Part shown: one piece after another, positions 1,233-2,711 of the stretch
How the letters are laid out: every line of letters starts with the position of its first letter
Position numbering within the stretch: position 1 is the stretch's first letter
Program-made: the position numbers and the translations under genes
Virus record (IMG/VR): IMGVR_UViG_2609459844_000003
Location: 1 to 6,259 of that record
Strand: one strand, 5' to 3'
Source: a virus
Lineage: Duplodnaviria > Heunggongvirae > Uroviricota > Caudoviricetes
DNA length: 6,259 nucleotides
The notes under the pieces: model-generated
Databases searched by the model: none
What the model was told of the DNA's origin: nothing
What the model saw: only the letters and a program-made list of their open reading frames with translations

Positions 1233-1560
1233 CCCATCAAATGAGAATGAATATCGATTATACTAATTAATGCTTAGAACAGGATCATATACCTGTATCA
1301 GGTCAGTCCACTCTTCACCTAAACGTGCAGATGTGTTAATCCGTCTCCCTGCTTAGCACCACTCTTTTGGTGATATACCCGTTTTGGCATAGTCGGCGAG
1401 AGACTGGTGTTGCAGCACTGTCCAGTCCTGTTTTACCATAAACCCCCTAGTTTTATCTTTTAATTAATAGATATTAGTAAGATGAATCAATGATGTGCTC
1501 AGAGCAAAGCACATCCTGCGTTGCTTTTAGTGCCATTTAACCTATAGAGAGATATGACGC

Positions 1561-1806
1561 GTGAGAAAGTTAATCTGTCTAATTTCGTTCGTTGCAACAT
1601 GCGGATTCGGGTATCAGGCATACCAGCATCATGGACTGGCTTCTCTACTGGCTTTCTTAGTCAGCTTAGGGGCTTTTCTAACTGCTGTAGCCAACTTAAT
1701 AAGTGAGAAGAAGAAGTCATCCTCTATAAGCCAAGTGATTGGTAATAACTCTTCAGGAATACAAGTCAGTGGTAATTTAACCATTAATGAAAAGGACAAA
1801 AAATGA
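1561..1806 (+). CDS. hypothetical small protein with hydrophobic segments; possibly the N-terminal part of the downstream gene
   Basis: 81-codon ORF in AT-rich DNA, GTG start with only a weak AGAGAG Shine-Dalgarno-like element. One strongly hydrophobic segment (LASLLAFLVSLGAFLTAVANLI) and a weaker one before it. The stop overlaps the downstream ATG (ATGA at 1803..1806). The C-terminal GNNSSGIQVSGN motif recurs in the N-terminus of the next ORF. Confidence 0.4.
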   Translation: MRKLICLISFVATCGFGYQAYQHHGLASLLAFLVSLGAFLTAVANLISEKKKSSSISQVIGNNSSGIQVSGNLTINEKDKK

Positions 1807-2711
1807 GTCTTTTCGATCATAAGTCGGGTCAACATGTCGGAGATGGTTCTACCGCAATCCAAGTAACCGGTGATGCTATCATTGGTAATACTACTACTGA
1901 AGTAGTTACTATCTGTGAATTAGTAGTTCAAGCACAAATGGCTTCTTTAAAAGAGGAAGCATATAAACTTGTAAACCAACGAGCGATAGAATTTGGTAAT
2001 CAGATTGCAGCTAAACTTTCTAGTGACCTTGATCATAAATTAAAAGAGAAATTATCCGACCCTGACATTCAATATTCGATGAACCAAGCTGTAACTCAGG
2101 TGGCTCGAAAAGGATTTGATGAAAAATCGGAGTTACTTAAAGAGCTAATCGTTTCTAAAATTCAAACTGAAGAAGAAGAGGATAGTATAGTTATAGATCA
2201 CGCTCTTGAGGTGACATCTAAATTAACAACAAACGACATTAAATTTCTCTCTCTAATATATTACCTCAGAAACATAAATAAGATACGAAACGGTATTAAC
2301 ATGACAGCTCTTGCTGAAAGAAATGAAACTCACTTTGGATTAATTGGCTTTACCGTAGAGCAAAACCATTCAGCCCACAAAGAATACTATGCTCGCTATG
2401 ATATTGATTACATTAAATTCTTAGATAAAATAGAGTCTTTGAGAAAAATAAACATTGATCTCCTCAGCTTAAAAGGCGTTATCTTCACAGACAAGCAATA
2501 CGTAACAAACTATCAAGACCTACTTGGAAAAAGGACTGGAATCACCAGCTTTGAAAGCGATGAGATGTTCTTTGAAACATTTCCTGCTTTAAAGTTAACT
2601 CTAGATGCATTTGGCGTATCGACCATAAATGACTTTAATTCATATGTTTTAAATCCAATTGGCGACCTGATTGCTCAAAACTTTCTTCGGGCTCGGAACT
2701 TCCTTCAATAG
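1803..2711 (+). CDS. hypothetical protein, 302 aa, no recognisable family; AT-rich accessory cargo
   Basis: A 909-nt ORF in AT-rich sequence where chance ORFs are short. ATG at 1803 with AAAGGA Shine-Dalgarno 6 nt upstream. Protein is K/E/I/N-rich. I see no Walker A, HNH, DDE or obvious HEPN signature by eye. Confidence 0.8.
   Translation: MSLFDHKSGQHVGDGSTAIQVTGDAIIGNTTTEVVTICELVVQAQMASLKEEAYKLVNQRAIEFGNQIAAKLSSDLDHKLKEKLSDPDIQYSMNQAVTQVARKGFDEKSELLKELIVSKIQTEEEEDSIVIDHALEVTSKLTTNDIKFLSLIYYLRNINKIRNGINMTALAERNETHFGLIGFTVEQNHSAHKEYYARYDIDYIKFLDKIESLRKINIDLLSLKGVIFTDKQYVTNYQDLLGKRTGITSFESDEMFFETFPALKLTLDAFGVSTINDFNSYVLNPIGDLIAQNFLRARNFLQ

Follow-up and report, generated by a model that had tools for sequence, protein, structure and literature searches.

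A two-gene prophage module encoding a small membrane protein and an LPO_1073/Vpar_1526 family protein that share a terminal motif

The two genes of the module

The DNA analyzed here, referred to as the window, is a stretch of 6,259 nucleotides (positions 1 to 6,259 of the IMG/VR virus record IMGVR_UViG_2609459844_000003). It contains, between an insertion sequence (IS) element and the lysis cassette of a prophage, two open reading frames (ORFs) on the plus strand, 1561..1806 (81 codons, GTG start) and 1803..2711 (302 codons, ATG start), which overlap by 4 nt (ATGA, 1803-1806). The same gap of -4 is found in most of the loci compared, and the overlap suggests that translation of the large gene may be coupled to that of the small gene. 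Positions, strand, Shine-Dalgarno sequence and overlap were exactly as described in an initial annotation of the window, whose reading of the pair as a small membrane partner and a larger soluble protein was correct as well. What the initial annotation did not contain is a motif of 20 residues that occurs in two places, in the C-terminal tail of the small protein and in the disordered N-terminus of the large one. This shared motif is the most informative feature of the pair. The segment 1233-2790 is a self-contained, horizontally mobile two-gene module, which the prophage carries as accessory cargo. Its coding features are as follows:

1546..1552, plus strand: Shine-Dalgarno-like purine run AGAGAGA, 8 nt before the GTG codon (sequence read directly)
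1561..1806, plus strand: small gene, 81-aa protein with two transmembrane (TM) helices, a basic linker and the C-terminal motif (ORF, ratio of nonsynonymous to synonymous substitution rates (dN/dS), homologues, AlphaFold2 (AF2) model)
1567..1617, plus strand: hydrophobic helix 1, approximately residues 3-19 (Kyte-Doolittle profile, AF2 helix)
1633..1701, plus strand: hydrophobic helix 2, approximately residues 25-47 (Kyte-Doolittle profile, AF2 helix), followed by the basic linker SEKKKSSS
1732..1791, plus strand: effector copy of the motif, QVIGNNSSGIQVSGNLTINE, residues 58-77 of the small protein (local alignment)
1792-1796, plus strand: Shine-Dalgarno sequence AAGGA of the large gene, within the end of the small gene, 6 nt before the ATG codon (sequence read directly)
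1803..2711, plus strand: large gene, 302-aa protein of the LPO_1073/Vpar_1526 family (NF045477, PF28206)
1830..1889, plus strand: receptor copy of the motif, QHVGDGSTAIQVTGDAIIGN, residues 10-29 of the large protein (local alignment)
1890..2708, plus strand: all-alpha domain, residues 30-302, with an N-terminal half (approximately 30-160) kept family-wide and a variable C-terminal half

The small ORF is a real gene under purifying selection. Pairwise comparisons among six loci yielded dN/dS values of 0.04-0.20, with synonymous sites near saturation, and in nine loci an equivalent purine run precedes the conserved start position (GTG, TTG or ATG) by 5-10 nt. An overlapping antisense ORF of 77 codons was also considered but rejected as a gene, since it is interrupted by stop codons in other loci. 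For the small protein, about 26 homologue clusters were found, all of approximately 81 aa and all annotated as 'hypothetical'. The protein matches phrog_27656 (E 2e-8) and, weakly, the holin family phrog_217 (E 0.003, 18.7 bits only); in Pfam, neither a holin nor any other family was matched. Its topology is holin-like according to hydropathy and the AF2 model, in which helices spanning residues 2-24 and 27-62 are followed by a disordered tail. The positive-inside rule, applied to the basic linker, suggests that this tail faces the cytoplasm. Annotation pipelines miss the small gene repeatedly. It was skipped by gene callers in the E. coli contigs, in one Klebsiella locus and in Burkholderia (records L001-L004, L012, L045 and L046).

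The large protein, not recognized in the initial annotation, belongs to a family that has a name, though it is indeed uncharacterized. It matched the NCBIfam model NF045477 over residues 28-295 with 105.3 bits (cut-off 45 bits); precomputed annotation assigns Pfam PF28206 both to the identical protein and to each homologue that the homologue searches listed. When 1.8 billion representative proteins were searched with a profile, 1,489 family clusters were obtained at E<=1e-3. Neither a function nor a fold relative of the family is known. In agreement with the earlier reading of the sequence, the Pfam scan of the large protein gave no Walker A, HNH, DDE or HEPN-type match, and it did not disclose an NTPase or repeat domain.

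The motif common to both proteins

Alignment of the two proteins of the window yielded a score of 40. When the tail of the small protein was compared with the head of the large one, none of 5000 composition-matched shuffles reached the observed score, and among whole-protein shuffles 2-3% reached 40. The result was repeated with a P2-type pair of only 27% identity, which gave a score of 45 that was attained by 25 of 5000 whole-protein shuffles and by a single one of 5000 tail-versus-head shuffles. The motif was present in all pairs examined (at least 34), whose gene gaps range from -4 to +9 nt. It opens most of the 146 family representatives that were read and is among the most conserved columns of the large-protein family alignment. 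The rough consensus is Q-x-Q-x-V-G-D-x-S-x-A-I-Q-A-G-G-[DN]-V-x-I, followed by EV-x-E-[IL]-C...NFP-x-LREEA, with a glycine or small residue at every fifth position. Its composition is dominated by G (18.7%), N (13.7%), I (13.0%), S (11.2%), Q (10.4%) and V (8.0%), while K (2.1%) and L (1.3%) are scarce and P (0%) does not occur. Both copies are located in regions modeled with low confidence. For the effector copy, the predicted local distance difference test (pLDDT) was below 50 at residues 54-58, 64-77 and 79-81 of the small protein, and no secondary structure was predicted by AF2 from residue 63 onwards; for the receptor copy, it was below 50 over residues 1-29 of the large protein in the monomer model.

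On the DNA level, the two copies of the window match at only 34 of 60 nucleotides, with no third-position excess. On these grounds, an origin of the shared motif by recent duplication or by gene conversion was rejected, and the likeness is therefore maintained on the protein level. In several lineages the two copies follow each other in their variable residues. The small and the large protein contain IQAGRDAN and IQAGRDVN in Burkholderia, IQANGNVT and IQAGGNVS in Vibrio, and QAGQDLNI and QAGRDLNI in Acinetobacter, and in the E. coli locus L013 IQAGND is found in both. An exact permutation test with nine lineages, each represented by one pair, gave p=0.001 (BLOSUM) and p=0.019 (identity); restricted to the eight variable positions that follow the invariant Q, the test gave p=0.003 and 0.011, respectively. 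As these lineages were hand-picked by the analyst and phylogeny was only partly controlled, the covariation across deep lineages is counted as moderate support.

Genomic settings, fused relatives and surroundings

The enterobacterial loci taken into account were the window, L001-L013, L015-L019 and 19 IMG/VR viral contigs. Among them, the small gene is without exception (30/30) located directly upstream of the large gene, with a gap of -4 to +3 nt. The pair was also detected in six P2-like viral contigs and in Vibrio, Acinetobacter and Burkholderia. Here, the partner directly upstream is a protein of 65 aa with one TM helix (Vibrio), a protein of 85 aa encoded inside a prophage beside the endolysin (Acinetobacter) and an uncalled ORF (Burkholderia). 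The enterobacterial pairs lie nearly always between the lysis cassette and the gene for the small terminase subunit, on the strand opposite to the late genes. The prophages carrying them differ in terminase (Terminase_2, GpA/DUF1441, P27), holin and endolysin. Since one slot is occupied in spite of these differing types, the pair can be regarded as cargo moving between mosaic phages. In Serratia, it adjoins an IS3-family transposase gene near proBA/crl. The pair of 27% identity is carried by P2-like elements, where it is flanked by the replication/DinI region and the portal gene; this gpA-gpQ interval has been shown experimentally to be a defense hotspot (Rousset et al. 2022). Three adjacent genes of this locus are full-length matches of PADLOC Hp1, Hp2 and Hp3 (E 1e-157 to 1e-248), the components of the three-gene 3HP system that protects against P1 (Rousset et al. 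2022). Taken together, the lysis-terminase slot of mosaic prophages and the P2 gpA-gpQ hotspot beside 3HP are settings that favor a function in defense. The conservation of the pair in other genomes, and its neighbors there, had been named in the initial annotation as a point to be clarified. The view expressed there, that the module is horizontally mobile cargo in a prophage moron position, is borne out by homologues in the same slot of differing prophages and by the distant pair in the P2 hotspot.

Two relatives, P0145 and P0212, possess an HNH domain of about 130 residues at their N-terminus, followed by a degenerate motif and the family domain. In PADLOC, this HNH domain matched the CBASS (cyclic oligonucleotide-based antiphage signaling system) effector endonuclease (E 1e-21), SAVED-HNH (1.6e-20), Shedu SduA (2.8e-18) and PDC-M68A (3e-28), and it showed a weak match to Pfam HNH_2. 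Located behind a known defense effector, the family domain holds the place of a sensor or regulator. The same kind of N-terminal HNH nuclease exists in Cap5-type HNH-SAVED CBASS effectors; since the nuclease precedes the Vpar_1526 domain in P0145 and P0212, this domain occupies the place that the SAVED sensor has in Cap5. In contrast to Cap5, the window protein has no nuclease part, its all-alpha Vpar_1526 domain bears no relation to SAVED, and a cyclic-nucleotide synthase is not encoded nearby.

Some other accessory genes were encountered in these loci. In Leclercia (L009), a gene just 3' of the pair (7004-7342, minus strand) revealed a weak match to the Pfam family Acb2_Tad1_hairpin. It would be a candidate anti-defense gene of the anti-CBASS/anti-Thoeris sponge family beside a candidate defense pair. 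Defense candidates were noted in other accessory slots of these prophages: L006 encodes a RelA_SpoT protein matching PADLOC PDC-S33 (8726-9787, minus strand, E 1e-119) and L019 a TIR-TM protein (7850-8737, plus strand, E 6e-56).

The surroundings of the coding region in the window contain the following features:

1233..1560, plus strand: non-coding region between the IS junction and the small gene, presumed to include the promoter
1353-1439, minus strand: 28-codon ORF, MVKQDWTVLQHQSLADYAKTGISPKEWC, in the upstream region of the module, also present in L001
2746..2771, no strand assigned: stem-loop with an 11-bp stem and a 4-nt loop in the AT-rich spacer (26% GC) between the convergent units
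2891..3151, minus strand: truncated remnant of an Rz-like spanin gene, 86 codons (phrog_214 positions 116-174 of 176, E 1.6e-17)
3169-3408, minus strand: hydrophobic ORF of 79 codons with GC 0.375, located where the lysis operon ends and called in each of the four related contigs
3476-4045, minus strand: complete DUF2514 Rz-type gene of the lysis cassette, which also comprises lysozyme and holin genes
4940-5176, plus strand: 78-codon ORF upstream of the holin gene and divergent from it, called in all related contigs
5264-5340, minus strand: tRNA-Met (anticodon CAT) in the late region of the prophage, adjoining the right-hand IS3 copy

To the left, the module is bordered by an IS3-family element with orfA at 849..1196 (minus strand). 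Its end was placed at position 1232 by alignment to L001-L004, four E. coli draft contigs without this IS copy, which are identical to the window from 1233 on, encode an identical 302-aa protein and contain different DNA upstream. To the right, a minus-strand lysis cassette follows, which is convergent with the gene pair, so that the location given in the initial annotation, between an IS element and the lysis genes, proved accurate. The AT-richness of the segment, previously judged by eye, could be confirmed by measurement. The G+C content (GC) amounts to 0.394 in the small gene, 0.355 in the large gene and 0.263 in the downstream spacer, thus 0.26-0.40 as compared to 0.50-0.55 in the holin, lysozyme and Rz genes; the value of the IS part is 0.526. 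In the contigs without the left IS copy, the other flank of the module is composed of a 77-codon ORF, an HNH-like gene and a gene for a P27-type small terminase subunit. With this subunit at one flank and the lysis cassette at the other, the position of the module is the lysis-to-packaging junction of a lambdoid prophage. The four contigs break approximately 1-2 kb further upstream, by eye at the end of another IS transposase gene (9-119 in L001), and in the window IS3-family elements are present at both sides of the region (1-1232 and 5400-6259; right orfA 5451..5777, plus strand). The prophage appears to be riddled with IS elements and is probably defective, the two-gene module being intact.

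The segment and its prophage are rare in finished records. When 1233-2900 was compared by megablast with a phage collection and with 5,426 complete E. coli genomes, no match was obtained, nor did a protein search of the phage collection give one. Single distant family proteins had no match in viral contigs, and a scan of genome contigs gave a single locus. The lysis genes of the prophage are only about 78% identical to anything in the 5,426 genomes.

Concerning the smaller features, the 86-codon ORF corresponds to no more than the C-terminal third of an Rz-like spanin and has the appearance of a recombination scar left by a second lysis cassette. A comparable fragment, labeled 'Phage_lysis (weak)', lies just 3' of the pair in the Klebsiella loci L010 and L011. 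The 79-codon ORF may be another membrane moron; its two Pfam matches (E 0.12 and 0.62) are weak, fall far short of the cut-offs and do not convince, and in PHROGs, NCBIfam and PADLOC there was none. For the 78-codon ORF, no convincing family match was found either (one weak Pfam match, E 0.13). Judged by eye, the 28-codon ORF, possibly a remnant, is similar to the beginning of a helix-turn-helix or transposase-like protein. In other loci, the small gene is separated from the divergent terminase gene by only about 120 bp. The stem-loop at 2746..2771 (RNA fold -15 kcal/mol; z -3.4 on the plus and -2.3 on the minus strand) is a possible terminator. As its T-run is confined to the minus strand, the unit terminated here may be the late operon and not the gene pair. 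A consensus scan called neither this stem-loop nor an intrinsic terminator for the pair.

Interpretation of the pair

Established properties of the module are the obligate pairing of its genes, the shared and covarying motif with its particular composition, the mobile hotspot settings and the fusion of the family domain to a nuclease. We estimate a probability of roughly one half that the module is an abortive-infection defense, in which a helical sensor and a holin-like hairpin effector would be coupled by beta-pairing of the shared motif. That the coupling proceeds specifically by amyloid-type templating is a more doubtful proposition. According to the proposed mechanism, the product of the first gene would be a two-helix hairpin of the inner membrane, with a basic linker and a cytoplasmic tail of about 20 residues rich in G, N, Q, S, I and V. 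The product of the second gene would be a cytoplasmic 302-aa protein that begins with the motif and continues with the all-alpha domain. It is conceivable that this helical domain, with its variable C-terminal half, recognizes a sign of infection and then associates with itself. The N-terminal motifs would thereby gather into a beta-structured seed, and this seed might pair with, or template, the matching tails of the membrane protein. Clustering of the hairpins could finally result in a holin-like lesion, by which the membrane would be depolarized or permeabilized before the phage cycle ends.

An arrangement of this kind is known from pairs with bacterial amyloid signaling sequences (BASS), in which collinear and frequently overlapping genes encode an effector with the motif at its C-terminus and a receptor with the motif at its N-terminus (Dyrka et al. 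2020, bioRxiv 10.1101/2020.01.06.895854). In the BASS motif, which comprises 20-25 residues, Q, N, G, V and I are enriched, while K, P and L are depleted (bioRxiv 10.1101/2020.01.06.895854). The window pair corresponds to these systems in the placement of the motif and in its adjacent, collinear and overlapping genes, and the motif of its family agrees in length and composition bias. On the other hand, BASS pairs, which consist of Bell effectors and NB-ARC/NACHT receptors, have been reported only in filamentous or aggregate-forming (multicellular) bacteria (bioRxiv 10.1101/2020.01.06.895854), whereas pairs of the window type occur in unicellular Gammaproteobacteria and Betaproteobacteria and their phages. 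A precedent for the layout is Bab/Agp, since this is an amyloid-signaling system of E. coli prophages with a receptor that is not a NOD-like receptor (NLR). Bab/Agp mediates abortive infection against T5 (Ibarlosa et al. 2024, bioRxiv 10.1101/2024.11.07.622273), which is abolished by beta-breaker mutations in either copy of the motif (bioRxiv 10.1101/2024.11.07.622273). As in the window, adjacent collinear genes, here located in defense regions of E. coli prophages, encode a small membrane-targeting protein with a C-terminal motif of about 20 residues and a larger, non-NLR partner that carries the matching motif at its N-terminus. Bab, however, is a soluble Bell-like helical domain of 109 aa and not an 81-aa two-TM hairpin. 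Neither the Babybell effector domain nor the TPR-GreA/B-C-PIN receptor was found in the window pair, and the residues reported for BASS11, the motif of Bab/Agp (I87 G88 S89 V90, Q92, D99, N100), show no obvious fit to the spacing of the window motif, few residues being compared. Ibarlosa et al. (2024) do not mention the LPO_1073/Vpar_1526 family, Abi_alpha or small TM effectors.

The P2-type pair is contained in Table S5B of Rousset et al. (2022) as system #141 'DUF6358 | Abi_alpha', with 14 occurrences and the remark '2 TM in protein 1'. The system is thus not undescribed, as supposed in the initial annotation, in so far as it had been catalogued; the supposition holds in that the sequences of #141 are absent from the table of evaluated systems of that study (Rousset et al. 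2022). The name given there refers to Abi-alpha (EF2833, 272 aa), encoded by prophage 6 of Enterococcus faecalis V583, which causes abortive infection with premature lysis (Lossouarn et al. 2019, PMC6356687), an outcome at the level of the membrane. Abi-alpha (PF14337, formerly DUF4393) and the large protein of the window have in common that they are prophage-encoded, comprise about 270-300 aa and lack a recognizable enzymatic domain. What separates them is that Abi-alpha has been reported as a single gene of Firmicutes, for which no small partner or shared motif is described. The Abi_alpha label of the P2-type large protein was obtained by the profile-profile method of Rousset et al. only; the DUF6358 label, likewise, was not reproduced with HMMER for any member. 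The relationship to Abi_alpha, if real, lies beyond the reach of HMMER. Together with the weak phrog_217 holin match, the label may nevertheless lend some support to the abortive-infection reading.

Prophage-expressed abortive infection by two genes is also known from RexA/RexB of phage lambda. One partner is soluble and comprises about 280 aa; the other, RexB, is a small polytopic membrane protein with four TM helices, thought to depolarize the cell. In comparison with the window pair, the gene order is reversed, no relationship in sequence was detected, and a terminal motif shared by RexA and RexB is not known.

Several observations weigh against an amyloid-like abortive-infection module. 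In contrast to BASS pairs, the effector is an 81-aa two-TM hairpin without a Bell domain, and the all-alpha receptor has no NLR architecture (NB-ARC/NACHT, TPR/WD). By hmmscan, Abi_alpha was matched neither by the window protein (E up to 1) nor by 57 diverse members (E up to 0.1) or four distant members (E up to 10) of the family. The comparison with PADLOC-DB 2.0.0, which the initial annotation had proposed for the locus, yielded no match for the window pair at E up to 1 and none for the P2-type large protein at E up to 0.01. A scan of 1233-1560 for consensus sigma-70 promoters did not find any. Vpar_1526 itself has been described as an uncharacterized protein of the Veillonella membrane proteome with no link to phages, and the Burkholderia pair is chromosomal, situated between GST and MarR genes with no obvious mobile context. 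Moreover, the choice of the nine lineages by hand has to be kept in mind, and among close relatives (19 unique pairs) permutation of the partners was significant with BLOSUM (p=0.009) and not with identity (p=0.19). A symmetric comparison of cis and trans combinations of these relatives gave 85:62 by BLOSUM and 68:66 by identity. As covariation is weak among close relatives, the short-range likeness is mostly a common consensus, which would also be explained by a stable tether.

Such a tether is the core of one alternative, by which the two proteins form a constitutive membrane-bound complex for superinfection exclusion or an envelope block, the motif being a stable beta-strand anchor that neither switches nor kills the cell. 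Besides the weak locus-specific covariation among close relatives, this explanation is favored by P0152, in which a TM helix, a basic linker, the motif and the family domain are joined in a single chain; its layout, an anchoring in cis, fits constitutive attachment as well as signaling. The moron position, too, is as suitable for superinfection exclusion as for abortive infection. However, P0145 and P0212 are fused to a cytoplasmic CBASS-type HNH nuclease and not to a membrane anchor, pointing to a sensor with swappable effectors rather than to an envelope block. Since, in addition, the covariation across deep lineages is significant and the small protein is a minimal holin-like hairpin, we regard a constitutive complex as unlikely. 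The nuclease fusions are also difficult to reconcile with a role in lysis timing, which is part of a further explanation, namely that the genes are a toxin-antitoxin or holin-antiholin pair. The small membrane protein would be a toxin, restrained by the large protein through binding to its tail, and the pair would serve prophage addiction or the timing of the prophage's own lysis instead of defense against other phages. In most enterobacterial loci the pair indeed adjoins the lysis cassette, the small protein has its weak holin match, the genes are tightly coupled through their overlap, and in the window the pair has stayed intact in a prophage riddled with IS elements. Yet it is encoded on the strand opposite to the late operon, it lies far from lysis genes in the P2 gpA-gpQ hotspot, in Serratia (beside an IS) and on the Burkholderia chromosome, and many types of lysis cassette work without it, making this explanation quite improbable.

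The pair might also be cargo unrelated to phage conflict, with a membrane-associated stress, envelope or host-interaction function, and its hotspot location a mere accumulation of morons. This assumption is in line with the lack of a matching model among known defense systems, with the occurrence of Vpar_1526 in membrane fractions of Veillonella as part of an ordinary proteome, with the Burkholderia copy among ordinary chromosomal genes and with the non-defense cargo that P2 hotspots carry as well (Rousset et al. 2022). It is at variance with the recurrence of the pair in two independently recognized accessory slots of mosaic phages, its position next to 3HP, the fusion of the domain to a CBASS-type effector nuclease, the variable C-terminal half of the domain and the Abi_alpha annotation made independently by others, so that we consider it unlikely, too. 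Finally, the large protein could act alone, like Abi-alpha in Enterococcus, the small ORF being incidental and for this reason often skipped by gene callers. This is very improbable, as none of the loci examined has one gene without the other, and the small ORF, besides being under purifying selection, contains a shared motif that covaries with that of the large protein.

For the window, the initial annotation was largely borne out, with corrections in three respects: the family of the large protein has a name, the P2-type pair had been catalogued and the motif had been missed. Beyond the window, we tentatively propose that the family and its mini-membrane partner are a second prion-like signaling system, far more widespread and spread by phages in unicellular Proteobacteria, in which a non-enzymatic, non-NLR sensor would be combined with a two-TM effector and elsewhere with an HNH nuclease. 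To date, the case for amyloid-type signaling in bacterial immunity is built on Bab/Agp as the one experimental system and on the Bell/NLR pairs. Even on conservative readings, a repeatedly unannotated small gene and a clear rule of co-inheritance are documented for this family. Should the module work like the known amyloid systems, a function would be assigned to a named, uncharacterized family and to a catalogued pair of the P2 hotspot, and the two-helix hairpin with its 20-residue tail would be the smallest effector so far. The mechanism would then also extend to a family of about 1,500 clusters, with members in enterobacteria, Vibrio, Acinetobacter, Burkholderia and the phages of these bacteria.

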